A stretch of 12,123 bases of DNA from a virus (lineage: Duplodnaviria; Heunggongvirae; Uroviricota; Caudoviricetes), in the IMG/VR virus record IMGVR_UViG_2778261276_000001, positions 1 through 12,123 of that record; one strand, 5' to 3'. Within the stretch, counting starts at the first letter, position 1, and each line of letters opens with the position of its first letter. Below, in pieces: positions 1-12,123 of the stretch. The translations under genes were made by a program, and so were the position numbers. The notes beneath the pieces are model-generated. The model was given only the letters and a program-made list of their open reading frames with translations, was not told the DNA's origin and ran no database searches.

Positions 1-401
1 GCACTACCTTGCAGCCTACTCCCGACACCAAAATTTCCCTTATGTAAAACGTCTGATAAACCAAGGTTTTCGAGAGCTGTTTTCACCGTGCCATCCGATT
101 TGATATCACCAAACGGATTCTTGCGGCTCAGGTATTCAACAGCAAACCCCGATCCCAGCAATTCAACAAAACCGGGCAGATCACCATTATCAAGCACATC
201 CCGTTGCGTTTTGTCACTTACAAACTGGGCCAGAGCTGCAGCAATAAAGCTGGCCTGCCGAATAACCTTATTGACTTGCGCACTGGATGCTTTCCCTGCT
301 GTAAATCCGGATAAAAGCGCAGGCAACGCTTCCCATTCCTCCTGCGACATAACATTGGCATTCCGATCAGTTGCAAACGCTTTAAAGTCATTTTTCGCCA
401 T
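1..401 (-). CDS. Tail fibre protein, N-terminal part (gene runs off the window start); start codon at 401..399
   Basis: Minus-strand ORF open to position 1; ATG overlaps the stop of the upstream gene (TGATG); translation [33 protein letters not shown]... resembles a phage side tail fibre N-terminus; position right after the gpI-like gene matches Mu/P2 baseplate-fibre order. Not listed in the ORF track because it is partial. Confidence 0.55.
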
Positions 402-1081
402 CAGAGTAATACTCCCCATGCCCCTACATCAAAACCACTGATGAATTCGTTATCCATATCAAAACCAAAAAATTTTGAACCTTCCGATGGAGTTTCCACC
501 GAAGGTGTTTCAATGCCACCCGCCCAAACCCCGGCGGCTTTTACTGTGAGATATCCCTGTTTAATTGCAGCAATTAACTCACGCGATACATCTGAAATAT
601 CAGTATCAGGAAAGAGCCAGACCGATATCGTCATGTCCTGGTTATCGACTATCTGCATTCGCAGTCCGGATCCTGCTGTCGCCGCGTCAAGAATTGCTGG
701 AAGCGAATCATTCCGTCCGTCCCAGTTATTAATCGCAATCTTCGCTTTAAGGATGACACGATAAGTTTCATCGCTGAGGTACATGTATCCGGAATCAGGA
801 TCGTATGGCCCCTGCCATACACCCTGATCATATCCAAGCCCGTCGGTATCCCAGCTGAAATAGACACCTGAGATAGGCTGGCTGACAACACGGCTACGTC
901 CGATCCACAATCCAAGAATGTCAAGTTGCACACCAACCGCAGAGTCAATATCAAATGCAGTAATCAGCCCTCTGGTGGCAGCCGCAACATCAATAAGCGG
1001 CCGGGTCATCAGATCAACATGTGCAAGAAATTTAGGTTTGGTGGCGTGGTAGTTCGTGATCAGTTCGGTGTATTTGCTCAT
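401..1081 (-). CDS. Baseplate/tail protein, P2 gpI / Mu gp48-like (YmfQ/DUF2313-like)
   Basis: 226-aa ORF, 4-nt overlap with the upstream gpJ-like gene and 1-nt overlap with the fibre gene; position between gpJ-like and fibre genes; resemblance to YmfQ-type proteins is from memory only. Confidence 0.55.
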
Positions 1082-2277
1082 GACTCCACCGTTATAACGA
1101 TATTTTCCGGTGTACAGGACGCAGATTCGTTGTATCTGATATCAATGTTTGATGACGACAAAGCCCCCGGGGATTTCCCAATCGTCAGTTCCTGAATATC
1201 GTAATAGCGTGCATTCCCGCCACTCACCACGCCAAGATTCGCCGGTGAGTAAATGCGACTTAAAAGGACCGAATCACCAATCATCAGACTATTGATATAG
1301 TCGGAAATAGCCTGCTGGATCTGCTGCCCTATCTGTGAGGTATAACCCGTAAAAACTTTTAATTTAATCCGGGCATAAACAGGTACATCACTGGAACGCG
1401 AGAATTTGATTACATGGGGATTGCCGTATTTATCCGGAACCGTAACGGATGTTGTACCGTGAGTGGCTGTCCCCTGGCCTTTATTCCCTCTGATAGCCTG
1501 AGCAATATCCGTCACATCACCGCCATCCACAATTACAGCAACAGAGTGTGGCGGTAACCCGTTACCGTCCTCCGAACCAGTATCGTTTTCATAGAGTTTG
1601 TGGCGGGTTACACCGGTAACATTAGAAACAGCACCATCCAGTGCTTCAAATGGGGTTATTGATGGCAACGCAACACTTTGCGACTGGCGGATACGTAACT
1701 CAGCATCAGTTTCTGCCGGAGAGCCAACAGTAGCCGCAGCAGGATTAGTTACCGAAACCCAGCCACGGGTTGGCGTATTAATTTCAGTGATAGTTCCAGC
1801 CAGCGCCGCCACTGCACCACTGACGGAACATGTTGCGGTCGCCATCACTGTACCATCCACGCCGACCACCACTGAAGCAGGCAAACGCCATATCACATTA
1901 TTACTGTCTTTCACGCTGCCATTAATGATGGTTGTTCCGGCAGTTCCTGTAAGAAGCAAATCAACCGTAGAGTTCGTCGCGCCTTTACGTGAAATACCAT
2001 TTATTTTCACGTTACTGGTCAGTGCAGCCCCATAGCCGGTTGCCGGTGAAAAACAGTTGTAGACAGTTATCGCCATATTATTGGCATCATGAATCGCCAG
2101 CGCCATCAGAGCCACCATCTGGCCGTCTTTGCTGTCCGGTTCGAGGTAGGCATCACTGCCATAAATCTGCTGAAAATAGCTAATCAGGGTGCTGAGTATC
2201 GTCTGATAATCAGGCGCACTGATCCCCTCCGCGGTTACCTTTGCAGATAAACCGAGAGAATCAAGGTTCAGAGCCAT
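1078..2277 (-). CDS. Baseplate J-like protein (P2 gpJ / Mu gp47 family)
   Basis: 399-aa ORF translationally coupled to its neighbours; size and position (after gpW-like, before gpI-like) fit the conserved V-W-J-I baseplate order. Confidence 0.6.
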   Translation of the reverse strand: MALNLDSLGLSAKVTAEGISAPDYQTILSTLISYFQQIYGSDAYLEPDSKDGQMVALMALAIHDANNMAITVYNCFSPATGYGAALTSNVKINGISRKGATNSTVDLLLTGTAGTTIINGSVKDSNNVIWRLPASVVVGVDGTVMATATCSVSGAVAALAGTITEINTPTRGWVSVTNPAAATVGSPAETDAELRIRQSQSVALPSITPFEALDGAVSNVTGVTRHKLYENDTGSEDGNGLPPHSVAVIVDGGDVTDIAQAIRGNKGQGTATHGTTSVTVPDKYGNPHVIKFSRSSDVPVYARIKLKVFTGYTSQIGQQIQQAISDYINSLMIGDSVLLSRIYSPANLGVVSGGNARYYDIQELTIGKSPGALSSSNIDIRYNESASCTPENIVITVES

Positions 2278-2630
2278 TACGCCTCCGATGTAACAGTCGT
2301 TATTCCATAGAGAGTGTCGATTTCAGCGGAAAACATGACACGTCGGGTCGTGGTATCCACCGTCGTATTGAAAGAGAGGATTGATTTAACGCCCTGCGTT
2401 TCGAGGATGCGCTTACGGATCGCCAGGTTGTAAGTTTCTGGTTTTTGCCTGCCCAGCACGGACTGGATCCACGGTGTTCCCTCTGTGGTATCAAGAAACC
2501 ATTGCCCATACCACAATTCGAATCGCGTTTTCACAGCCTGCGCTACGGCCTCAGGCGAGTTAATCAGCCAGGTGTCATCACCGCTGCCAAAGGTGTAATC
2601 GCCATCGGCGTCTTCACGTCTGTATCGCAT
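2277..2630 (-). CDS. Baseplate wedge protein, P2 gpW / Mu gp46-like (gp25-like)
   Basis: 117-aa ORF with 1-nt overlaps to both neighbours; size and synteny between spike and J. Confidence 0.5.
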   Translation of the reverse strand: MRYRREDADGDYTFGSGDDTWLINSPEAVAQAVKTRFELWYGQWFLDTTEGTPWIQSVLGRQKPETYNLAIRKRILETQGVKSILSFNTTVDTTTRRVMFSAEIDTLYGITTVTSEA

Positions 2631-3382
2631 CAGTTTACTCCGTCGGTATTGCTTCCACCGCGCTGAACACCACCATGAGTGTGCGTATCATCGATTGGCT
2701 TGCCGTTAGCCTTCACGCTACCCAAAAACTCAACAGCACCAGTGATTTTTGAAGCCACACCAGAAACAACAGACCCCACCATGCCTCCCATCCAGGTTAA
2801 CAGGCCATGAATGGTTACTTTCTCAGAAAAATCAGCCAGAGGGGCAACCACATCAAGGCCCCCCGGAGCGACAATTTTAATTTTCCTGGTATCAGGATTA
2901 AGCTCAAAATAGGTGCTGCCGTCATCACTACGCAACTGTGTGGCACTGGTATTAATACCGCTAATCTTCCTTGCCTGCGACTGGGGACCGACAATACAAA
3001 ACGCATCCGATAAATCATGCATTCTGTCATCGACCGGCTCCTGTATCCCGCCACTCTGCCACCAGAAATCAATACAACGATCGGCAAAAATCACCAAACA
3101 TTCATCACCGGCTTTAACTGGAAACGTTAGCGTACAGCCTCCGCCACGCGGGAATACCACTGGCACATCCACCAGCAATGGGTAATTTTTGGTAATGCGG
3201 TTGCCGTCGTTATCAATTTCAACGTAACGGATAGCAGGCTGTACAACCGCCGTCACCGCATCAGGAGCGAATGACTGAACAATGCCAGGCAAGGCGACAC
3301 GGATCTGGTTCTTTGTTGTTTCCCGTTCAGATTTAAATGTTTCGGCAAGGTCGCCGCTGCGGGTCTGGTCAGATACTGCCAT
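2630..3382 (-). CDS. Baseplate spike/assembly protein, P2 gpV / Mu gp45-like
   Basis: 250-aa ORF; C-terminal ...DDTHTHGGVQRGGSNTDGVN has an HxH motif typical of spike apex domains; synteny immediately upstream of the W-J-I genes. Confidence 0.6.
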   Translation of the reverse strand: MAVSDQTRSGDLAETFKSERETTKNQIRVALPGIVQSFAPDAVTAVVQPAIRYVEIDNDGNRITKNYPLLVDVPVVFPRGGGCTLTFPVKAGDECLVIFADRCIDFWWQSGGIQEPVDDRMHDLSDAFCIVGPQSQARKISGINTSATQLRSDDGSTYFELNPDTRKIKIVAPGGLDVVAPLADFSEKVTIHGLLTWMGGMVGSVVSGVASKITGAVEFLGSVKANGKPIDDTHTHGGVQRGGSNTDGVN

Positions 3383-3401
3383 TTAGTAGGCTCCAGAAAG
3401 C

Positions 3402-3424
3402 AAAAAACCCGCCAAGTGGCGGGT
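3402..3424 (-). terminator. Rho-independent terminator between the inserted cassette and the spike gene (hairpin can form on either strand)
   Basis: GC stem CCCGCCA-agt-GGCGGG at 3408..3423; on the minus strand it is followed by a T-run (plus-strand AAAAAA at 3402..3407); lies 22 nt after the stop of the 142-aa gene. Confidence 0.6.
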
Positions 3425-3446
3425 TTGAATTTTGAGAAATTTCAGC

Positions 3447-3875
3447 TTATGCAGTTAACGAGTCATCACCAATCTTCAGTAATTGATTAACGATTGCATC
3501 GACCTCTTCCGCATCCAGAATTACACTTCTCGCGGTAATCCGGTTGATTTTCCGCTCAAGCTTGTAATCAGAATTAACACGTTGGGCATGCGTCATTTTC
3601 AGTTTAACGCCGATTTTCTTTACTGCGTTAACATCAACATCGTTAAGTGCAGCTGCCTCACCACTACAAAAGGCCGTATAGACTCGCATGTGAACTCCAC
3701 CTTTTAGTTTTTCACCATCTTGTGTAGCGGTCGGTACCAGATTGTTGGTGATCCGTAAGGCGGAATGGTACATACCATAGTATGCTCGGCTAATAGCATT
3801 TCTCGTCCACATCTCACCGTTTAGAGCCAGGGAATGCTTAGCCAATTCAAGAAAACAGGTATGCTCAACCGACAT
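3447..3875 (-). CDS. Hypothetical 142-aa protein with an R-x6-H (HEPN-like) motif; second gene of an overlapping pair
   Basis: ORF with TAATG start/stop overlap to the upstream 243-aa gene; motif NAISRAYYGMYHSAL contains R-x6-H; about 43% GC in a sampled stretch versus about 55% in the flanking tail genes. Confidence 0.7.
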   Translation of the reverse strand: MSVEHTCFLELAKHSLALNGEMWTRNAISRAYYGMYHSALRITNNLVPTATQDGEKLKGGVHMRVYTAFCSGEAAALNDVDVNAVKKIGVKLKMTHAQRVNSDYKLERKINRITARSVILDAEEVDAIVNQLLKIGDDSLTA

Positions 3876-4606
3876 TAGAGTTCCCCGGCTTCAAAGCATC
3901 CGACGCATTCTGAATCCGCAAGCCCCGCAATAATAATCTCATCAGCCAAGGCATTATTCATCTGCGAAAGAAGCACTGGATCGTCTGTTTTGACTTCAAC
4001 GAACAGCGTATCAAGTTCTGACATTACATAAAAAGCATGAGCGCCAGCAAGACGAGCGCGGTACTTTTCTGCAACGTTCATCATGAGCCGCCCAATAGTT
4101 TTTAGCTCCTGAGCATGATCTTTTTGGGTATGCAGATAATTGAGCGTGTCATACCATTTGCCCATATCTTCAGGGCGCGGTACTTCCATTGCAGTTAGCA
4201 TCGGCATCACCTTTTCAAGCAAATCGATATCAACCCAGTATGCAGAAATTGTAGCAACCTCAGCCAATATCGTTGGATTAAGTGAATCAGATGCTTTCTG
4301 AATCATCACATACTGGCGAGCATGCAAACCTAAGTTACGCAGCGCAATCGTATAGTTACAAAAAGAAACTGGATCGTTAGGCGCTATTCTCAACCCCCGC
4401 TCACAGAGTGAACATCCTTCATCTATTTCACCAAGAACAAGCTTAGCTAAGCCTTCAATTGATAGCCCCTGATAACGTTCAGGTAGTTTCTTCGCTTCAC
4501 GAATGATTCGATGGATTTCAAACTCACTCAGAAGGTTTTCACCCTTAGTTAATGAAGGAGTCAGAAGATCTAACAGTTCTCCTGATTTTGGCTGCGCTAA
4601 ACTCAT
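3875..4606 (-). CDS. Hypothetical 243-aa protein, no recognisable motif; first gene of the overlapping pair
   Basis: Long ORF with a plausible RBS (AGGA about 10 nt upstream of ATG); preceded by a 149-bp intergenic region; translationally coupled to the 142-aa gene. Confidence 0.7.
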   Translation of the reverse strand: MSLAQPKSGELLDLLTPSLTKGENLLSEFEIHRIIREAKKLPERYQGLSIEGLAKLVLGEIDEGCSLCERGLRIAPNDPVSFCNYTIALRNLGLHARQYVMIQKASDSLNPTILAEVATISAYWVDIDLLEKVMPMLTAMEVPRPEDMGKWYDTLNYLHTQKDHAQELKTIGRLMMNVAEKYRARLAGAHAFYVMSELDTLFVEVKTDDPVLLSQMNNALADEIIIAGLADSECVGCFEAGEL

Positions 4607-4691
4607 GTTTTAGTTATTCCTGGCTTTAATGAAGTAGCATATCGATGGCAATCCACCATCAAAAAGTCAGTGCAGTGTAATCGCTCGTCTC

Positions 4692-4730
4692 AAAAAACAA
4701 CAGTTTTTAGAGCACATTTTGTTGTTTTTC
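4692..4730. promoter_or_regulatory. AT-rich inverted repeat (AAAAACAACA ... TGTTGTTTTT, 17-nt spacer) in the intergenic region upstream of the 243-aa gene
   Basis: Near-perfect 10-bp inverted repeat at 4693..4702 and 4720..4729; could be an operator or a weak terminator after the secreted-protein gene. Confidence 0.35.
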
Positions 4731-4755
4731 AGGCGTTACGAATTTCAGGTTACCT

Positions 4756-5097
4756 TCACCCAGCCACTTTTTTACAAGGGAAAGATCCGATGATTTTCGG
4801 CGCATCCATGCTGTTCTGCAGAAGCTGGACATTCAGGAATCGCGTTTCGGTACCAGGGCGACGAATGTATTCAAAGCCGTAGTTGTTACCGTCTTTGGCA
4901 GGCATAAGCCCCATGTCTACTTTCAAACCATTGGTACCCAGTTCGGTGATTTTTTGAGAGGTAACTCTTTCACCGTTGATAGTCGATAACTCGCCCTGGT
5001 TTGCAACCATAGTGTAGCCACCGCATTTAACCGTGAAGCCATCCGCCCACGCGCTGCACGCAGAAAAGACAGCTAACAGAAAAATAATACCCCTCAT
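4756..5097 (-). CDS. Secreted protein with N-terminal signal peptide (possible lipoprotein), 113 aa
   Basis: N-terminus MRGIIFLLAVFSACSAWA-DGF has a hydrophobic h-region and an AxA signal-peptidase I site; the Cys in FSAC could be a non-canonical lipobox; start 3 nt after the stop of the hub-like gene. Confidence 0.65.
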   Translation of the reverse strand: MRGIIFLLAVFSACSAWADGFTVKCGGYTMVANQGELSTINGERVTSQKITELGTNGLKVDMGLMPAKDGNNYGFEYIRRPGTETRFLNVQLLQNSMDAPKIIGSFPCKKVAG

Positions 5098-5100
5098 TGC

Positions 5101-6162
5101 TCATCCCCTTTGCAAAGCCGATCGCGTATACAGATCCGCCGCGCCACGCGCTTCGCACATCATATCCATGTACCACGCCTGGCCCCTTGTGTCGCCAGTG
5201 TACATAATCCCGCGCACAATATAAACGCCATCCGTTGCGATGCTGGCAGGCTGCGATGTGGTGCCGCTTAGCGTGATATTTCCATCCGTGTTCTGGTCGG
5301 TGATCTGACCACCAGCCATCGCAATATCGTTGTTCGACAAGGCGGTACGATACACGGAAGCCTGATCCAGTTGAATGAGCCCATTAACCCGGATGTTCGG
5401 ATTAATAAGCGCGCGGACGTTTACGCCGTTGCCGATGGTCTGCTGCGGCATGCCAATAAGCCCGGTAGCGCTGTTGAGCACAATCGCTTCGTGAACATAT
5501 TCATTATTCACCACCATCTGGCGCTGACCATCCACGAATTGCCATGTTGCGCCACATTGCCCGGCTACGTTATCCATTAGATGCCGCGTCATGCCAAAGA
5601 GCACCCGCCCCCGGGGGAATACAGTAGCAGGCATTTCAGGCGTCAGGCCTTCGGTCGCACCTTTGGCTTCGAAGTCTTTCATCAGCGCACGGTTCACATC
5701 AGCGACCGTGTAACCGGCAGCCAGCGTCTGTGAGGTTATACTGGTGGCAAAAGCCAGATCAGTATCTGCTGCCTGAATCAGGACGTAGGAATCAACCGGA
5801 CTGTCTTTTCCTGTGACCGAGTAGCGAATTTCACCGCTGAAAATCAGTCCGTAGTTGCGGCCATCTCTCTGGCCCACGTCCGCCGCGTCAACTTCCCGCA
5901 CGGTCCCTACGTCGCTTGCTGACACCTCCGGCGCGATACCGTCGTAACCGGCAATCAGACGCACTTTCGAAAATTCCTGCCCGGTGATTCGGTTCACAGT
6001 ATCTGCCGAGAGGTTATAAATTTTGATAGTCCCTACCCGGGACGCGCTGCTGATGTTGAACCAGTCGATCGTAAAGGTGACTTTGAAATCACTTAGCTCA
6101 ATTCCCTGACCGTTCCCGTCCACAAGCTGCAGCTCGAAATGTCTCATCCAGTTCTGTGACAT
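5101..6162 (-). CDS. Phage tail protein, probably baseplate hub (Mu gp44 / P2 gpD-like) by position
   Basis: 353-aa ORF with GGAG RBS; first gene of the tail operon in this window; function assigned only by synteny upstream of the spike gene. Confidence 0.45.
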   Translation of the reverse strand: MSQNWMRHFELQLVDGNGQGIELSDFKVTFTIDWFNISSASRVGTIKIYNLSADTVNRITGQEFSKVRLIAGYDGIAPEVSASDVGTVREVDAADVGQRDGRNYGLIFSGEIRYSVTGKDSPVDSYVLIQAADTDLAFATSITSQTLAAGYTVADVNRALMKDFEAKGATEGLTPEMPATVFPRGRVLFGMTRHLMDNVAGQCGATWQFVDGQRQMVVNNEYVHEAIVLNSATGLIGMPQQTIGNGVNVRALINPNIRVNGLIQLDQASVYRTALSNNDIAMAGGQITDQNTDGNITLSGTTSQPASIATDGVYIVRGIMYTGDTRGQAWYMDMMCEARGAADLYTRSALQRG

Positions 6163-6164
6163 GC

Positions 6165-6371
6165 TTACTCCGTTGATACCAGTAAATGACTGAGGCCGCC
6201 CAGATCAGTTTTCGTGGGATAATCCTGTGTGTTGTCATCGCAGACCACCACCAGCTTAAAACCAAGTCCCATAACTTCTTTCCACTGAGAGACTGCTGCA
6301 TCGCTAATGCCTAGTGCTTTAGCAACAGCACGCTGGGTTCCGAAGTGGTCAATAACATCTTTTTTGTACAT
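6165..6371 (-). pseudogene. cro: Truncated/chimeric cro: the first ~33 codons match P22/phage-21-type Cro, then fused in frame to unrelated sequence
   Basis: N-terminus MYKKDVIDHFGTQRAVAKALGISDAAVSQWKEV matches P22 Cro as I recall it (61 aa); the remaining 35 residues MGLGFKLVVVCDDNTQDYPTKTDLGGLSHLLVSTE are unrelated and the ORF stops 2 nt before the tail-gene ATG. Confidence 0.65.
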
Positions 6372-6385
6372 AGACTCGCTCCGAA

Positions 6386-6403
6386 ATTAAAGAACACTTA
6401 AAT
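6386..6403. promoter_or_regulatory. Operator OR1-like (ATTAAAGAACACTTAAAT), P22/21-type half-sites
   Basis: 18-bp near-palindrome with TTAAG/CTTAA-type half-sites overlapping the pR -10; the same architecture recurs at 6434..6451 and 7202..7219. Confidence 0.55.
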
Positions 6404-6429
6404 TATCCACCAAAGGAATCTTAAGTCAA
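6402..6429 (-). promoter_or_regulatory. pR-like promoter for cro (-35 TTGACT at 6429..6424, 16-bp spacer, -10 GATAAT at 6407..6402 on the minus strand)
   Basis: Near-consensus sigma-70 hexamers with correct spacing; overlapped by an operator. Confidence 0.6.
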
Positions 6430-6433
6430 GTTT

Positions 6434-6451
6434 ATTTAAGATGTCTTAACT
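6434..6451. promoter_or_regulatory. Operator OR3-like (ATTTAAGATGTCTTAACT) abutting the repressor start codon
   Basis: TTTAAG-N4-CTTAA palindrome ending 1 nt before the cI ATG; suggests a leaderless pRM transcript as in lambda. Confidence 0.55.
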
Positions 6452-7102
6452 ATGAATACACAACTGATGGGTGAGCGTATTCGCGCTCGCAGAAAAGAAC
6501 TCAAGATTAGGCAGGCTGCCCTTGGCAAGATGGTTGGCGTGTCTAATGTTGCTATTTCCCAATGGGAGCGATCTGAAACTGAGCCCAATGGCGAAAACCT
6601 ATTGGCCTTAGCCAAGGCTTTGCAGTGCTCCCCTGATTACCTGTTGAAAGGAGAGGATAGTCTTTCAAACATTGCCTATCACAGCAGGCATGATCCAAGA
6701 GGTTCGTATCCTCTAATTAGTTGGGTAAGCGCAGGATGTTGGATGGAAGCTGTAGAGCCATATCATAGGCGTGCAATAGATAACTGGTACGACACAACGG
6801 TAGATTGTTCTGAAGACTCTTTTTGGCTCGACGTTAAAGGCGATTCAATGACTGCCCCGGCAGGACTGAGTATTCCTGAGGGGATGATTATTCTCGTCGA
6901 CCCAGAAGTCGAACCACGTAATGGAAAGCTGGTAGTCGCCAAACTTGAAGGAGAAAACGAGGCGACATTCAAAAAGTTAGTTATTGATGCCGGTAGAAAA
7001 TTCCTGAAACCACTCAATCCACAATACCCAATGATTGAAATCAATGGGAACTGTAAAATCATTGGCGTTGTCGTTGATGCCAAGCTAGCAAACCTTCCTT
7101 AA
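6452..7102 (+). CDS. cI: Repressor, P22 C2 / phage 21 cI type (HTH plus S24 LexA-like autopeptidase domain)
   Basis: 216-aa protein MNTQLMGERIRARRKELKIRQAALGKMVGVSNVAISQWERSETEPNGENLLALAKALQCSPDYLL... is near-identical to P22 C2 repressor as I recall it; C-terminal GDSM (Ser nucleophile) and a conserved Lys; divergent from cro across the operator region. Confidence 0.93.
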   Translation: MNTQLMGERIRARRKELKIRQAALGKMVGVSNVAISQWERSETEPNGENLLALAKALQCSPDYLLKGEDSLSNIAYHSRHDPRGSYPLISWVSAGCWMEAVEPYHRRAIDNWYDTTVDCSEDSFWLDVKGDSMTAPAGLSIPEGMIILVDPEVEPRNGKLVVAKLEGENEATFKKLVIDAGRKFLKPLNPQYPMIEINGNCKIIGVVVDAKLANLP

Positions 7103-7124
7103 GGGGCTTTCGCCCCTTTTTTAT
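7102..7124 (+). terminator. Rho-independent terminator after the repressor gene
   Basis: AGGGGC-tttc-GCCCCT hairpin directly after the stop, followed by TTTTTTATTT. Confidence 0.8.
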
Positions 7125-7191
7125 TTCCCGTTAAAAATCAAAGACAAACTAAATTCACGCCCATAAAATTAAGTTTTCTTCAAAAATGCAC

Positions 7192-7220
7192 TTGACCAAT
7201 AAATTAAGAAGTCTTAAATT
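7192..7220 (+). promoter_or_regulatory. pL-like promoter (-35 TTGACC 7192..7197, 17-bp spacer, -10 TAAATT 7215..7220) with the OL1-like operator AATTAAGAAGTCTTAAAT (7202..7219) in the spacer
   Basis: Consensus-like -35, correct spacing, and an operator palindrome of the same family as the OR sites. Confidence 0.6.
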
Positions 7221-7266
7221 TAAGCCATCAGCAGGACGCTGGAAGCCAAACGGAACAGATTGGCAG

Positions 7267-7306
7267 GCTCTTTAACATCGACGGACTCTCAACCTAACCG
7301 TTGAGA
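7267..7306 (+). promoter_or_regulatory. nutL site: boxA (GCTCTTTAACAT, 7267..7278) and boxB hairpin (TCTCAAC-CTAACC-GTTGAGA, 7287..7306) of phage-21 type
   Basis: boxA matches the CGCTCTT(T)A consensus; the 7-bp stem and CUAACC hexaloop match the phi21 boxB as I recall it; located between pL and N. Confidence 0.75.
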
Positions 7307-7416
7307 CCAGAACTTGAGTGGTTTTGGGGATGGCGCGAATTGCAGCTGCAAGACAGCGATCGAGAAGATAAGCACCTCGACGCGTCATGCGCCAAAGCCA
7401 CTTAAAGGAGACCATC

Positions 7417-7722
7417 ATGGTAACCATTGTCTGGAAAGAATCCAAAGGTACGGCAAAAAGCCGCTACAAAGCTCGCAGAGCAGAACTTATTGCCGAGCGA
7501 CGCAGTAATGAAGCACTGGCGCGAAAAATTGCGCTAAAGCTCTCTGGTTGCGTCAGAGCAGACAAAGCAGCATCACTAGGAAGCCTTTGCTGCAAGAAGA
7601 AAGAAGAAGTCGTTCGAAAAAATAGAAGTATTTATTACAAAGATTCAAACCCGTTAGGAAACAAAATACATGCAGTCCAAAAAATAAAATTGTACAGTAA
7701 ACTACCGTACGGTGCTTATTGA
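7417..7722 (+). CDS. N: Antitermination protein N, phage-21 type
   Basis: AAGGAG RBS before the ATG at 7417; N-terminal arginine-rich motif GTAKSRYKARRAELIAERR matches the phi21 N ARM as I recall it; downstream of nutL. Confidence 0.8.
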   Translation: MVTIVWKESKGTAKSRYKARRAELIAERRSNEALARKIALKLSGCVRADKAASLGSLCCKKKEEVVRKNRSIYYKDSNPLGNKIHAVQKIKLYSKLPYGAY

Positions 7723-7730
7723 GTATGCTT

Positions 7731-8063
7731 ATGGTGAAAAAGACTATTTATGTTAATCCTGACCGCGGACAAAACAGAAAAGTATCTGATAGAGGTCTTA
7801 CATCTCGAGACAGGAGGAGAATAGCGAGATGGGAAAAAAGGATAGCATATGCATTAAAAAACGGTGTAACACCTGGATTTAATGCTATAGATGACGGTCC
7901 TGAATATAAGATTAATGAAGAACCAATGGACAAAGTTGACAAAGCATTAGCAACACCATTTCCTCGCGATGTCGAAAAAATTGAAGATGAAAAATATGAG
8001 GATGTAATGCACAGAGTTGTTAATCACGCTCACCAACGAAATCCAAATAAAAAATGGTCATAG
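7731..8063 (+). CDS. nun: Transcription termination/exclusion factor Nun (HK022-type); the exact start is uncertain (ATG 7725, ATG 7731 or GTG 7734)
   Basis: Contains the ARM SRDRRRIARWEKRIAYALKNGV and the C-terminus ...HAHQRNPNKKWS with the penultimate Trp characteristic of HK022 Nun; overlaps the N stop codon. Confidence 0.85.
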   Translation: MVKKTIYVNPDRGQNRKVSDRGLTSRDRRRIARWEKRIAYALKNGVTPGFNAIDDGPEYKINEEPMDKVDKALATPFPRDVEKIEDEKYEDVMHRVVNHAHQRNPNKKWS

Positions 8064-8085
8064 CCCACTTCGGTGGGTTTTTTAT
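8064..8085 (+). terminator. Rho-independent terminator after nun
   Basis: CCCAC-ttcg-GTGGG hairpin followed by TTTTTTATT immediately after the nun stop. Confidence 0.75.
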
Positions 8086-8202
8086 TGTCTGAACAAATCT
8101 AATTTACTACCGCAAGCCACGCAGTGAAATGAGGGTTACCTGCTCAGGCCGCCAGAAGCAACGCGGAAAATCAATTCCAGCTTATTACGATTGAGGTGAG
8201 CC

Positions 8203-8340
8203 ATGCTCAAGAAAGTCAAACGCCGACTTTACAAAGAAGGTAGATATTCATGCCAGTTGCCAAAATGCGACACAACAAAATGGAGTGTCGATGACTGGTG
8301 TAACTGGATAGATAGATACGGAACTTGGTGGGATAAATAA
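8203..8340 (+). CDS. Small hypothetical protein (45 aa, basic N-terminus, Cys/Trp-rich) at the position of lambda sieB
   Basis: ATG preceded by GAGGTGA RBS; MLKKVKRRLYKEGRYSCQLPKCDTTKWSVDDWCNWIDRYGTWWDK; below the ORF-track size cut-off; leader sequence repeated upstream of two other ORFs. Confidence 0.4.
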   Translation: MLKKVKRRLYKEGRYSCQLPKCDTTKWSVDDWCNWIDRYGTWWDK

Positions 8341-8394
8341 CAGGTAACTTAAGCGTATTTACTTTCGCAGCAAACCACTTATTTGAGGTGAGAT

Positions 8395-8481
8395 ATGGAA
8401 GAAGAATTTGAAGAGTTCGAAGAGCATCCTCAGGATGTGATGGAACAATACCAGGACTATCCGTATGACTACGACTATTGA
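8395..8481 (+). CDS. orf28: orf28-like small acidic protein (28 aa)
   Basis: GAGGTGA RBS; MEEEFEEFEEHPQDVMEQYQDYPYDYDY; length 28 aa and a 17-nt overlap with the ral start match the lambda orf28/ral arrangement as I recall it. Confidence 0.55.
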   Translation: MEEEFEEFEEHPQDVMEQYQDYPYDYDY

Positions 8482-8562
8482 TAAAAATCAATGGTGTGGA
8501 CAATACGAACGACGACAATGATTGCCAGAGAACTTGGTAAACAGAACTACAAGGCTGCCTGA
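8465..8562 (+). pseudogene. ral: ral (restriction alleviation) with an internal ~103-bp frameshifting deletion
   Basis: N-terminus MTTTIDKNQWCGQ matches lambda Ral and stops after 18 codons (8465..8521); the Ral C-terminus MIARELGKQN.KAA is encoded in another frame at 8518..8562; junction at a CAAT microhomology. Confidence 0.6.
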
Positions 8563-8620
8563 TGGTGGCCTTTATTTTTGTCCGTAAATAATTTCATGCT
8601 TATTACAATCAAGGTGATAT

Positions 8621-9070
8621 ATGGAAGAACAAGCAAACAAGATTCTCGTAGAACTACTGCAAAAAGCCAGCAATGGAATAGATGCTGCTGTTTCATTTAG
8701 CCAAGCACAGATTCCTGATGTTGTTCATCAGTTGCTGCTATGGAATATGGTTGACAGTCTGATTAAAACATTAATAGCCATTCTAACAATCCCACTGGTT
8801 TTCTGGTTTATGAAGAAGCAGTGCCAAAGAGTTGAGACAGGTAAAATCGGTGATGAAGGATACTCATGGGAGAGGGGAAATCCCAAATACAGGCCGACAA
8901 TGGTTTGGGATAGCAAAGGAGATATTAACCTTCTTATCATGCCATTGGTTGGAGTTTTGACTCTGTGGGGGATTTTTATTATTGGTGTAGTAACCAATAT
9001 GACTTGGTTAAAAATTTGGCTGGCCCCAAAACTTTACCTTATCGAATATGCAGCATCATTGGTTAAGTAA
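8621..9070 (+). CDS. Hypothetical inner-membrane protein (149 aa, two predicted TM helices) inserted between ral and ea10
   Basis: Hydrophobic segments LIKTLIAILTIPLVFWFM and INLLIMPLVGVLTLWGIFIIGVV; AAGGTGA RBS; about 700 bp separates ral' and ea10 here versus about 180 bp in lambda as I recall it. Confidence 0.75.
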   Translation: MEEQANKILVELLQKASNGIDAAVSFSQAQIPDVVHQLLLWNMVDSLIKTLIAILTIPLVFWFMKKQCQRVETGKIGDEGYSWERGNPKYRPTMVWDSKGDINLLIMPLVGVLTLWGIFIIGVVTNMTWLKIWLAPKLYLIEYAASLVK

Positions 9071-9219
9071 TTTCAGGCCGCATAATCGTCCTTTATTTTT
9101 GGCATAAACAACAGAATAAACACTGCACTGTGTATTCATTCCAACGAGTGAATACACGGAGCAATGTCGCTCGTAACTAAACAGGAGCCGACTTGTTCTG
9201 ATTATTGGAAATCTTCTTT

Positions 9220-9248
9220 GCCCTCCGATGTGAGGGCGATTTTTTTCT
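9220..9248 (+). terminator. Rho-independent terminator-like hairpin upstream of ea10 (tL2-like position)
   Basis: GCCCTC-cgatgt-GAGGGC followed by GATTTTTTTTC. Confidence 0.6.
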
Positions 9249-9264
9249 GTGAGGATATGAACAG

Positions 9265-9633
9265 ATGTCAAACATCAAAAAATACATCATTGATTACGAC
9301 TGGAAAGCATCAATAGAAATTGAAATCGACCATGACGTAATGACAGAGGAAAAACTTCACCAGATTAATAATTTCTGGTCAGACTCTGAATACCGACTAA
9401 ATAAACACGGCTCTTTATTAAATGCTGTATTAATCATGCTGGCGCAACATGCTCTGCTTATAGCAATTTCGAAAGACTTAAATGCATATGGTGTTGTTTG
9501 TGAGTTCGACTGGGATGATGGAAATGGTCAGGAAGGATGGCCTCCAATGGATGGTAGTGAAGGAATAAGAATTACCGATATCGATACATCAGGAATATTT
9601 GATTCAGATGATATGACTATCAAGGCCGCCTGA
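9265..9633 (+). CDS. ea10: Ea10-like protein (lambda Ea10)
   Basis: 122-aa ORF of the same length and position as lambda ea10, immediately upstream of cIII; sequence appears lambda-like from memory. Confidence 0.8.
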   Translation: MSNIKKYIIDYDWKASIEIEIDHDVMTEEKLHQINNFWSDSEYRLNKHGSLLNAVLIMLAQHALLIAISKDLNAYGVVCEFDWDDGNGQEGWPPMDGSEGIRITDIDTSGIFDSDDMTIKAA

Positions 9634-9706
9634 GTGCGGTTTTACCGCATACCAATAACGCTTCACTCGAGGCGTTTTTCGTTATGTATAAATAAGGAGC
9701 ACACCA

Positions 9707-9870
9707 TGCAATATGCCATTGCAGGGTGGCCTGTTGCTGGCTGCCCTTCCGAATCTTTACTTGAACGAATCACCCGTAAATTACGTGACGGATGGAAACG
9801 CCTTATCGACATACTTAATCAGCCAGGAGTCCCAAAGAATGGATCAAACACTTATGGCTATCCAGACTAA
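9707..9870 (+). CDS. cIII: CIII, inhibitor of FtsH (protects CII)
   Basis: AAGGAG RBS; 54-aa product [54 protein letters not shown] matches lambda CIII as I recall it; overlaps kil. Confidence 0.93.
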
Positions 9871-9982
9871 ATTCACTATCGCCACTTTTATTGGCGATGA
9901 AAAGATGTTTCGTGAAGCCGTCGACGCTTATAAAAAATGGATATTAATGCTGAAACTGAGAGCAAGCAAAAGCATTCACTAA
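9839..9982 (+). CDS. kil: Kil (host cell division inhibitor), 47 aa
   Basis: Internal ATG with AGGAG RBS inside the longer track ORF 9713..9982; [47 protein letters not shown]; 46-nt overlap with gam as in lambda. Confidence 0.8.
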
Positions 9983-10353
9983 CCCCCTTTCCTGTTTTCC
10001 TAATCAGCCTGGCATTTCGCGGGCGATATTTTCACAGCTATTTCAGGAGTTCAGCCATGAACGCTTATTACATTCAGGATCGTCTTGAGGCTCAGAGCTG
10101 GGCGCGTCACTACCAGCAGATCGCCCGTGAAGAGAAAGAGGCAGAACTGGCAGACGACATGGAAAAAGGCCTGCCCCAGCACCTGTTTGAATCGCTATGC
10201 ATCGATCATTTGCAACGCCACGGGGCCAGCAAAAAAGCCATTACCCGTGCGTTTGATGACGATGTTGAGTTTCAGGAGCGCATGGCAGAACACATCCGGT
10301 ACATGGTTGAAACCATTGCTCACCATCAGGTTGATATTGATTCAGAGGTATAA
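9937..10353 (+). CDS. gam: Gam (RecBCD inhibitor), 138-aa long form
   Basis: Near-identical to lambda Gam as I recall it ([22 protein letters not shown]... to ...[10 protein letters not shown]). Confidence 0.95.
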
Positions 10354-10358
10354 AACGG

Positions 10359-11144
10359 ATGAGTACAGCACTCGCAACGCTGGCTGGGAAGCTGGCTGAA
10401 CGTGTCGGCATGGATTCTGTCGACCCACAGGAACTGATCACCACTCTTCGCCAGACGGCATTTAAAGGTGATGCCAGCGATGCGCAGTTCATCGCATTGT
10501 TGATCGTCGCCAACCAGTACGGCCTTAATCCGTGGACGAAAGAAATTTACGCCTTCCCTGATAAGCAGAACGGCATCGTTCCGGTGGTGGGCGTTGATGG
10601 CTGGTCCCGCATCATCAATGAAAACCAGCAGTTTGATGGCATGGACTTTGAGCAGGACAATGAATCCTGCACATGCCGGATTTACCGCAAGGACCGTAAT
10701 CATCCGATCTGCGTTACCGAGTGGATGGATGAATGCCGCCGCGAACCATTCAAAACCCGCGAAGGCAGAGAAATCACGGGGCCGTGGCAGTCGCATCCCA
10801 AACGGATGTTACGTCATAAAGCCATGATTCAGTGTGCCCGTCTGGCCTTCGGATTTGCTGGTATCTATGACAAGGATGAAGCCGAGCGCATTGTCGAAAA
10901 TACCGCATACACTGCAGAACGTCAGCCGGAACGCGACATCACTCCGGTTAACGATGAAACCATGCAGGAGATTAACACTCTGCTGATTGCCCTGGATAAA
11001 ACATGGGATGACGACTTATTGCCGCTCTGTTCCCAGATATTTCGCCGCGACATTCGCGCATCGTCAGAACTGACACAGGCCGAAGCAGTGAAAGCTCTTG
11101 GATTCCTGAAACAGAAAGCCACTGAGCAGAAGGTGGCAGCATGA
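10359..11144 (+). CDS. bet: Bet (Red beta single-strand annealing protein)
   Basis: 261-aa product [72 protein letters not shown]... matches lambda Red beta; 4-nt overlap with exo. Confidence 0.97.
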
Positions 11145-11821
11145 CACCGGACATTATACTGCAGCGTACCGGGATCGACGTGAGAGCTGTCGAACAGGGG
11201 GATGATGCGTGGCACAAATTACGGCTCGGCGTCATCACCGCTTCAGAGGTTCACAATGTGATAGCAAAACCCCGCTCCGGAAAGAAATGGCCTGACATGA
11301 AAATGTCCTACTTCCACACCCTGCTTGCCGAGGTTTGCACCGGTGTGGCTCCGGAAGTTAACGCTAAGGCGCTGGCCTGGGGAAAACAGTACGAGAACGA
11401 CGCCAGAGCCCTGTTTGAGTTTACTTCCGGCGTGAATGTTACTGAATCCCCGATCATCTATCGCGACGAAAGTATGCGTACCGCCTGCTCTCCGGATGGT
11501 TTATGCAGTGACGGCAACGGCCTTGAGCTGAAATGCCCGTTTACCTCCCGGGATTTCATGAAGTTCCGGCTCGGTGGTTTCGAGGCCATAAAGTCGGCTT
11601 ACATGGCCCAGGTGCAGTACAGCATGTGGGTGACGCGAAAAGATGCCTGGTACTTTGCCAACTATGACCCGCGTATGAAGCGTGAAGGCCTGCATTATGT
11701 CGTGATTGAGCGGAATGAAAAGTACATGGCGAATTTTGACGAGATGGTGCCGGAGTTCATCGAAAAAATGGACGTGGCACTGGCTGAAATTGGTTTTGTA
11801 TTTGGGGAGCAATGGCGATGA
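11141..11821 (+). CDS. exo: Exo (lambda exonuclease, Red alpha)
   Basis: 226-aa product [44 protein letters not shown]... matches lambda Exo. Confidence 0.97.
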
Positions 11822-12000
11822 AGCATCCTCACGATAATATCCGGGTAGGCGCGATCACTTTCGTCTACTCCGTTACAAAGCGAGGCTGGGTATTTCCCGG
11901 CCTTCCTGTTATCCGAAATCCTCTGAAAGCACAGCGGCTGGCTGAGGAGATAAATAATAAACGAGGGGCTGTATGCACAAAGCATCTCCTGTTGAGTTAA
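11818..12000 (+). CDS. orf60a: orf60a-like protein
   Basis: 60-aa [32 protein letters not shown]... overlapping the exo stop (ATGA) and overlapped by the next gene by 28 nt, as in lambda. Confidence 0.8.
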
Positions 12001-12123
12001 GAACGAGCATTGAGATGGCACATAGCCTTGCTCAAATTGGAGTCAAGTTTGTGCCAATACCAGTAGAAACAGACGAAGAATTTCATACGTTAGCCGCATC
12101 CCTTTCACAAAAGCTGGAAATGA
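11973..12123 (+). CDS. orf63: orf63-like protein, N-terminal part (runs off the window end)
   Basis: [50 protein letters not shown]... matches lambda orf63 in sequence and position; truncated by the window end. Confidence 0.75.
   Translation, partial: MHKASPVELRTSIEMAHSLAQIGVKFVPIPVETDEEFHTLAASLSQKLEM

Follow-up and report, generated by a model that had tools for sequence, protein, structure and literature searches.

Does the small membrane protein encoded between ral and ea10 of a lambdoid phage keep other phages out of the cell, or does it act on the host for the benefit of its own phage? This question is raised by a 149-codon gene at positions 8621-9070 (+ strand) of a 12,123-nucleotide stretch of DNA from a virus of the class Caudoviricetes (IMG/VR record IMGVR_UViG_2778261276_000001, positions 1 to 12,123). 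We refer to this whole stretch as the window. A preliminary description of the window, made from its letters alone, had proposed that the gene is an insertion encoding a membrane protein with two helices, and that it might replace the exclusion functions sieB or rex. We find that this is a real gene encoding a two-helix membrane protein, and that it belongs to a very large family of phage proteins whose two ends are nearly invariant. The proposed interpretation is partly supported: the protein may well be an early effector of the inner membrane, for which superinfection exclusion is, tentatively, the role we rank first.

Family, selection and anatomy of the protein

The open reading frame (ORF) is present exactly where it had been reported in the ORF list of the window. 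It starts with ATG, encodes 149 amino acids (aa), and is preceded by a strong Shine-Dalgarno sequence (AAGGTGA, 8611-8617, + strand). The two hydrophobic helices are equally evident, since Kyte-Doolittle windows of 19 residues delimit hydrophobic segments at aa 46-64 and aa 106-124. We retrieved 80 close relatives of the gene from IMG/VR, 79 of which were testable over their full length. The 149-codon ORF is intact in 78 of these 79 relatives, and the pairwise ratio of nonsynonymous to synonymous polymorphism (pN/pS) is 0.25 overall. These results show that the gene is real and that it is under purifying selection.

The gene has been catalogued before, and the copy in the window is not a divergent one. 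Residues 1-149 of the protein match the entire profile phrog_3054 (positions 1-137 of 137, E=2.8e-64), which is labelled "unknown function". The gene is the same as gene 34 of phage Sf6 (NP_958210), located after ral and before the annotated tL2A and the "boundary sequence" bsq4, and the same as the gene of the "TM helix-containing protein" of HF4s (98.7% identity). It corresponds to the RefSeq "hypothetical protein" entries WP_000392424 and WP_000392423 of Escherichia coli, with 98-100% identity in many E. coli prophages, and is also found in Gally, CUS-3, HK633, N7, and many P22-like Salmonella phages. The proteins Sf6 gp34, HF4s, and WP_000392424 (50-100% identity) share with ours the slot, the flanking "boundary", the two helices, and the termini, and differ from it in nothing essential, the loop between the helices varying in length to give versions of 149, 140, and 121 aa. 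DNA matches were found in 797 of 5,426 complete E. coli genomes, 112 of which match over most of the query. With a counterpart in Sf6 and matches in about 800 genomes, the insertion is neither new nor unusual, and it is an ordinary finding in this window.

The family itself is large and widespread. It comprises 1,694 clusters at 90% identity. At 50% identity there are 4,089 representatives with E<=1e-3, of which 1,937 reach E<=1e-10, and those listed are single-domain proteins of about 112-184 aa. A tblastn search found members in 181 phage records, both temperate and lytic. The lytic carriers include N4-like Schitoviridae of Vibrio and Salmonella and phi92-like Justusliebigvirus, and further carriers are phages of Klebsiella, Pseudomonas, and Rheinheimera. 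The Ralstonia jumbo phage RsoM2USA (L097) encodes three tandem paralogues in 1.8 kb (2169-2648, 2896-3360, and 3373-3903; hidden Markov model E=1e-35 to 2e-40), with conserved termini and very different loop lengths.

No source gives a functional name to any member of the family, and the distant members of the clusters are all "hypothetical". Scans of the 149-aa protein with Pfam, NCBIfam, and PADLOC gave no matches (0 families at E<=1 in PADLOC-DB 2.0). When 120 representatives of the family were scanned with Pfam, the outcome was scattered sub-threshold matches to unrelated membrane families, each in at most 2 members. A profile search of the sequences in PDB returned nothing at E<=10, and fold searches returned nothing specific. 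In the searchable literature, queries by gene name, PHROG identifier, and accession number turned up no publication about the gene and no exclusion experiment. The pair orf78 and orf87 of P22 was considered as a split homologue and rejected, as BLASTP showed no similarity.

PHROG 3054 is matched by all 120 representatives, and 114 of the 120 have two hydrophobic segments by hydropathy. The protein of the window has the architecture of this PHROG, with two helices and the motifs QIPDV..QLL.W and IAPK.YLIEYAASLVK. In the alignments of the family, the near-invariant N-terminal motif reads G-x-D-x-A-V-x-F-x-Q-A-Q-I-P-D-V-I-x-Q-L-L-x-W, and the C-terminal one, which ends the protein, reads N-x-x-W-L-K/Q-I-W-I-A-P-K-x-Y-L-I-E-Y-A-A-S-L-V-K. 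Both terminal segments are nearly invariant from the phages of E. coli to those of Vibrio, Pseudomonas, and Ralstonia, whereas the membrane helices and the loop are variable. Identical terminal residues are found in more than 90% of the representatives, across morphotypes and host genera.

The selection acting on the close relatives can be broken down along the protein (all segments on the + strand). The acidic N-terminal helix (aa 1-45; 8621-8755), which is conserved and runs into the first membrane helix, has a pN/pS of 0.11. The value is 0.19 in membrane helix 1 (aa 46-64; 8756-8812), a hydrophobic segment whose sequence is poorly conserved across the columns of the family alignment, and 0.29 in the inter-helix loop (aa 65-105; 8813-8935). 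This loop is rich in K and R beside helix 1 and varies in length, from 21 to 69 aa in the family representatives, with only some 12 aa in HK633. Evolution is fastest in membrane helix 2 (aa 106-124; 8936-8992), which has a pN/pS of 1.07, and the conserved amphipathic helices at the C-terminus (aa 125-149; 8993-9067) have a value of 0.10. The conservation pattern of the family is the opposite of what is expected for a channel or a holin. The selected function sits in the two terminal helices rather than in the membrane helices.

Structure prediction with AlphaFold2 was poor with 22 sequences (pLDDT 68) and good with 120 sequences (pLDDT 89, pTM 0.67). In the latter model, residues 2-68 form a single helix that comprises the N-terminal segment and membrane helix 1. 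It is followed by a region of low confidence at aa 71-90, a helix at 106-125, and short C-terminal helices at 128-134 and 136-148. Because there are two membrane helices, both conserved ends must be on one side of the membrane. The N-terminal tail has few K or R and a mean net charge of -3.8 across the family, and the flanks of the helices on the loop side have an excess of K and R over the outer flanks in 111 of 114 representatives. Since the tail is acidic and the loop flanks are richer in K and R, the positive-inside rule suggests that the conserved termini are probably periplasmic, the counting of charges being the sole basis of this assignment.

The cassette and its transcription

The preliminary description had placed ral and ea10 less than 200 bp apart in lambda and noted a distance of about 700 bp in the window. 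Both values are accurate. The gap in lambda is 182 bp (ral at 34087-34287, ea10 at 33536-33904), and the one here is 702 bp, counted between the last base of the ral remnant (8562) and the first of ea10 (9265). The DNA alignment of the window with lambda, Sf6, and HK633 reveals one clean insertion relative to lambda, which amounts to an accessory cassette of 521 bp (8581-9101, + strand) that lambda lacks. It consists of a 40-nt leader, the Shine-Dalgarno sequence, the ORF, and a 31-nt tail. The insertion is bounded by 12-bp direct repeats with the sequence CCTTTATTTTTG. The left copy (8569-8580, + strand) is the T-tail of the ral terminator and marks the left edge of the insertion; the right one (9090-9101, + strand) is at the end of the tail. 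An exact-match search found these 2 copies in the window, 521 bp apart, where 0.00 are expected by chance, and a single copy in lambda. The window is collinear with lambda as far as the T-tail of the hairpin that terminates ral, and becomes so again from GGCATAAA. This hairpin (8551-8572, + strand), identified in a terminator scan and aligned with lambda, Sf6, and Gally, resembles an intrinsic terminator, with a 9-bp stem followed by TATTTTTG (dG -13.9 kcal/mol, z -2.3). It is also present in lambda and lies directly upstream of the cassette. The hairpin that precedes the right repeat is degenerate and not stable here (RNA fold dG -2.9 kcal/mol, z +0.17). In GC content the cassette (0.386) does not stand out as foreign from its neighbours (0.37-0.43). 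We propose that the 521-bp cassette entered by recombination at the T-tail of the ral terminator.

A second sequence may have been used in such exchanges. The 19 nt AAGGTGATATATGGAAGAA (8611-8629), which span the Shine-Dalgarno sequence plus codons 1 to 3 (M-E-E), match the start of orf28 in lambda exactly (about 3345-3365 on the - strand of L011; alignment columns 12-40 and 264-285). The start of orf28 in the window (8385-8403) differs from them at one base. In HF4s and HK633 the membrane-protein gene comes directly after N or gp43, and the similarity begins about 30 nt before its ATG. The shared orf28-like start may serve as a recombination joint.

The ral locus adjoins the cassette as had been described, but ral itself is a pseudogene (8465-8562, + strand). 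Comparison with lambda ral by blastn and tblastn, three-frame translation, and alignment showed that its nt 1-40 run directly into nt 140-201, with the junction at a short repeat (GGxCAAT). This internal deletion of 103 nt shifts the frame and leaves 18 codons. On the other side, a non-coding stretch of 160 bp leads from the cassette to ea10 (9102-9264, + strand). It is nearly base-for-base identical in lambda, Sf6, HK633, and the window, which is unusually high for an intergenic region, and it has no Rfam match. The terminator scan identified a tL2a-type intrinsic terminator at 9218-9239 (+ strand; dG -12.9 kcal/mol, z -3.1), a hairpin common to lambda, Sf6, and HK633 and annotated as tL2A in Sf6.

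The gene behaves as a mobile accessory gene, in the manner of a moron. In the close relatives it is always in the early-left operon, with neighbours that vary freely: ral, N, a Sakai-Sap20-like ORF, or DUF5484 upstream, and ea10, a gene like that of Sf6 gp33, cIII, or kil downstream. PhiR46_1 (L010) has a copy with 76% identity (4001-4450) between Rz and Nu1, in the bor slot of lambda, with the lysis cassette about 1.6 kb upstream. This copy shows that the gene switches between accessory slots of early and of late regions. Vibrio phage 1220 g2 has a homologue on the opposite strand between tail genes, together with a bidirectional terminator. In lytic phages the gene is found in early or middle regions beside genes of RNA polymerase, thymidylate synthase, dUTPase, or NAD salvage.

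The gene has the same strand as pL in the window. The likely pL (7192-7220) is about 1.4 kb upstream of it, and the terminator-like hairpins at 8062-8079 and 8551-8572 lie in between. The gene ends 148 nt upstream of tL2a, which is the likely 3' end of the transcripts crossing it. We found no sigma-70-like promoter upstream of the gene and no stable hairpin directly after the ORF. Judged by sequence alone, it resembles a delayed-early gene that depends on N.

Published RNA-seq data (S1 and S4 tables of PMC9928086) are available for the copy in the Gally prophage of E. coli LF82 (LF82_104; L095 2562-3011), which is 98% identical and has the same 72-75 nt upstream. In condition B6, which the S1 caption defines as bacteria without macrophages after 6 h in DMEM, LF82_104 had 539 and 466 reads when N had 26 and 32, which is about 11-fold per kb, and the structural genes were at background. 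The reads climb stepwise from N to LF82_105 (108 and 137) and to LF82_104, and then drop. In macrophages, LF82_104 was 8-fold above its level in LB (q=4e-14; PMC9928086). Given this large excess over the reads of N, at least the Gally copy can be transcribed independently of N in some conditions of the non-induced lysogen. The stepwise climb and the drop suggest that one or more internal promoters of Gally are active in non-induced lysogens in the B6 medium and silent in LB. The responsible promoter may lie in the stretch shared with the window. The prophage small RNA svsR (PMC12803456) was considered as a transcript that could map here and was rejected, since it is at the 3' end of cI.

Exclusion, takeover and weaker alternatives

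Superinfection exclusion is the commonest role among the small early phage proteins of the inner membrane whose function is known, such as T4 Imm and P22 SieA. By analogy with these cases, we favour the view that the gene encodes an early effector of the inner membrane, and that Imm-like superinfection exclusion is its most likely role, a preference that we hold tentatively. The two hydrophobic helices would be an anchor in the inner membrane and nothing else. The working part would be a module made of the two conserved ends, on the same side of the membrane and presumably in the periplasm. The protein would be produced as a delayed-early product dependent on N, with some autonomous transcription in lysogens under certain conditions, and its module would act on a conserved component of the host envelope. 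The final step is a guess from precedent, in which the surface of the inner membrane would be changed such that the DNA of a second phage cannot enter. Exclusion was ranked first because the moron-like mobility, the expression in lysogens, and the tandem paralogues with divergent loops fit it. The paralogues of RsoM2USA, which keep their termini and differ in their loops, behave as if in an arms race.

The preliminary description had regarded the protein as unrelated to the known exclusion proteins, and this is confirmed. The comparison with SieB, RexB, and defence families that it had put forward was made with BLASTP, hhalign, and PADLOC and was negative throughout. Against SieA, SieB, RexB, and T4 Imm, the BLASTP E values are at least 0.1 and the hhalign probabilities at most 0.2%. 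SieB gave E=12 and 0.1%, SieA E=0.5 over 38 aa and 0.15%, RexB 0.14%, and T4 Imm 0.11%. T4 Imm is likewise a small early phage protein of the inner membrane and provides the best analogy for an exclusion function useful to lytic phages. However, it has 83 aa and is restricted to relatives of the T-even phages, whereas this family has 120-180 aa and occurs in many groups of phages. The SieB proteins of lambda and P22 are likewise accessory, membrane-associated, and encoded in the lambdoid early-left region, but sieB is antisense to pL and has its own promoter, and SieB acts by abortive infection. Lambda RexB, also an inner-membrane protein of the lambdoid immunity/early region, has more membrane helices, requires RexA, and is co-transcribed with cI, unlike the protein studied here. 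P22 SieA, described in PMC10883804 as a prophage-encoded inner-membrane protein that blocks the entry of DNA, is encoded in the immI/late region from its own promoter, has another size and hydrophobic pattern, and is found only in P22-like phages.

Several observations weigh against exclusion. There is no match in PADLOC, no similarity to SieA, SieB, RexB, or Imm, and no informative fold match. Known exclusion proteins are usually narrowly distributed and fast-evolving, and termini that are near-invariant across phages fit a conserved host target, as in takeover or counter-defence, at least as well. The topology is a call from charge counting alone, and with cytoplasmic termini the variable loop would be the periplasmic part, which changes the picture. 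LF82_104 does not rise above background in LB stationary phase (13 and 5 reads), and that study lists no moron for Gally (PMC9928086).

Takeover of the host or counter-defence is nearly as likely as Imm-like exclusion, and as uncertain. The terminal module would then inhibit a conserved machine of the inner membrane, or a defence effector acting at the membrane, during early lytic growth. This follows the logic of cIII with FtsH, Kil with FtsZ, and T4 RII against Rex, and any effect on exclusion would be incidental. The gene is indeed placed among early-left genes that modulate the host (ral, kil, cIII, and gam), and the copies of lytic phages are in early or middle regions beside genes of nucleotide metabolism. 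Terminal residues shared by more than 90% of the representatives, in unrelated phages, point to a conserved host partner and not to variable phage parts. The absence of a promoter match and the background expression of LB lysogens are also in line with such a role. Yet, the protein has no homology to any known inhibitor, and a purely lytic function has no need for transcription in non-induced lysogens or for moron-like placements. Tandem paralogues with different loops also look more like a diversification of targets.

The role put forward in the preliminary description, that of an exclusion or abortive-infection protein expressed by the prophage to protect the lysogen in place of sieB or rex, appears unlikely. 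We could not detect sieB, rexA, or rexB on either strand of the window, and tblastn with SieB gave no significant match. The early-left region is a known site of such genes, the product is a membrane protein, and the Gally copy is transcribed without N in some lysogen conditions. The position of sieB is indeed occupied by an ORF of 45 aa (DUF5484; 8203-8340, + strand) and lacks sieB, as had been noted, but it also holds a gene of 114 aa similar to HK022 Nun that the description had missed. The cassette therefore coexists in this window with a homologue of Nun, an established exclusion factor. Moreover, one IMG/VR prophage (L076) has N, sieB (183/183 residues), orf28, and ral identical to those of lambda, followed by the cassette (95% identical) and ea10. 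Since it carries an intact sieB together with the cassette, the latter adds to sieB and does not replace it. Whereas sieB is antisense with a promoter of its own, this gene shares the strand of pL, follows two terminators, and has no promoter match. The LB lysogen expresses it at background, and PADLOC has no match for it. Finally, a function specific to prophage immunity is at odds with the abundance of the family in strictly lytic phages, which never form lysogens.

Less probable still is a membrane protein of lysogenic conversion or host fitness, with a role like that of Bor or Lom, which would be turned on in conditions associated with the host. It would account for the 8-fold increase of the Gally copy in macrophages (q=4e-14) and for its expression in B6, with structural genes at background, and the relative in PhiR46_1 does occupy the bor-like slot between Rz and Nu1. 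However, such a role cannot apply in the lytic phages among which the family is widespread, those infecting marine Vibrio, Pseudomonas, Ralstonia, and Rheinheimera, and the neighbouring LF82_105 rises as well, so that partial derepression is an alternative reading of these data. A regulator of lysis timing, acting as antiholin or as the partner of a holin, is very improbable, and so is a small protein that forms pores: the two-helix hairpin is of holin-like size and the PhiR46_1 relative follows the lysis cassette at a distance of about 1.6 kb, but there is no match to a holin profile in Pfam or PHROG, the gene has no lysis gene next to it in 11 of 12 contexts and is in early regions away from them in all sampled contexts other than PhiR46_1, the family occurs in phages with unrelated lysis systems, and membrane helices that are the least conserved part of the protein (pN/pS of 1.07 in helix 2) are a poor fit to the lining of a pore.

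The rest of the window and the wider family

In its immunity and early regions, the window carries on the + strand a cI-type repressor (6452-7102) and an N-like antiterminator (7387-7722; PHROG 271, E=1e-31, and a weak match to Pfam N_peptide). The Nun-like gene (7719-8063; PHROG 5632 over its full length, E=9e-71) overlaps the N-like gene and directly follows it. Nun of HK022 is a transcription-termination factor that excludes lambda. A remnant of 25 codons of the 3' end of lambda N is found after the Nun-like gene, at 8105-8179. The arrangement of N and Nun is also present in two IMG/VR loci (L037 and L092). Their occurrence side by side is unusual, and Nun is the clearest exclusion function in the window. 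Further along, orf28 (8395-8481) precedes the ral pseudogene, and ea10 (DUF2528; 9265-9633) is followed by cIII with its thermoregulator and then by kil, gam, bet, and exo. Rfam has a single match in the window, the RNA element of this lambda cIII thermoregulator (RF01804; 9693-9751, + strand, 88.5 bits).

The left part of the window has another history. A P22-type cro (6165-6371, - strand) is truncated, as Pfam P22_Cro, a model of 60 positions, matches its residues 2-32 only. The immunity region is fused directly to a myovirus baseplate-hub gene (5101-6162), with the junction near 6273, the position at which every match between an E. coli genome and the left half of the window breaks off. The truncated cro and the fusion to the baseplate hub suggest a large deletion or rearrangement, and hence a defective chimeric prophage. 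A coverage of at least 80% of the window was found in no complete E. coli genome. Within the baseplate module, the interval between hub and spike has three ORFs without Pfam match (3447-3875, 3875-4606, and 4756-5097, all on the - strand). The protein of 142 aa has a weak HEPN-like match in PADLOC (HEPN_IX, E=0.009), and its upstream partner of 243 aa shares one base with it, the stop TGA overlapping the ATG. The third protein, of 113 aa, has an N-terminus resembling a signal peptide. Within the tail genes, these ORFs may represent a moron or else a pair that serves in defence or as a toxin.

Taken by itself, the gene at 8621-9070 is a routine catalogue entry, and even in Sf6 the annotation of its product says no more than "gene 34 protein". 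Of greater interest is the family, which counts about 4,100 clusters at 50% identity and lacks both a Pfam model and a structure. Its pattern of conservation is unusual, with invariant termini and membrane helices that are free to vary. It is present in model phages that are easily manipulated, such as Sf6, HK633, CUS-3, and the N4-like and phi92-like coliphages. A bolder and rather doubtful proposal is that PHROG 3054 is a class of inner-membrane effectors found across the phages of Proteobacteria, in which a variable hairpin would anchor an invariant periplasmic module of two helices that disables a conserved machine of the envelope. If this is true, the machine would be one needed for the entry of phage DNA or for a defence acting at the membrane, and the family would be a broad one of exclusion or counter-defence, shared by temperate and lytic phages and unrelated to Imm, Sie, or Rex. 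A function for this family would cover thousands of phage ORFs now described as "TM helix-containing", and it bears on whether the early-left operons of lambdoid phages hold another exclusion or takeover function.

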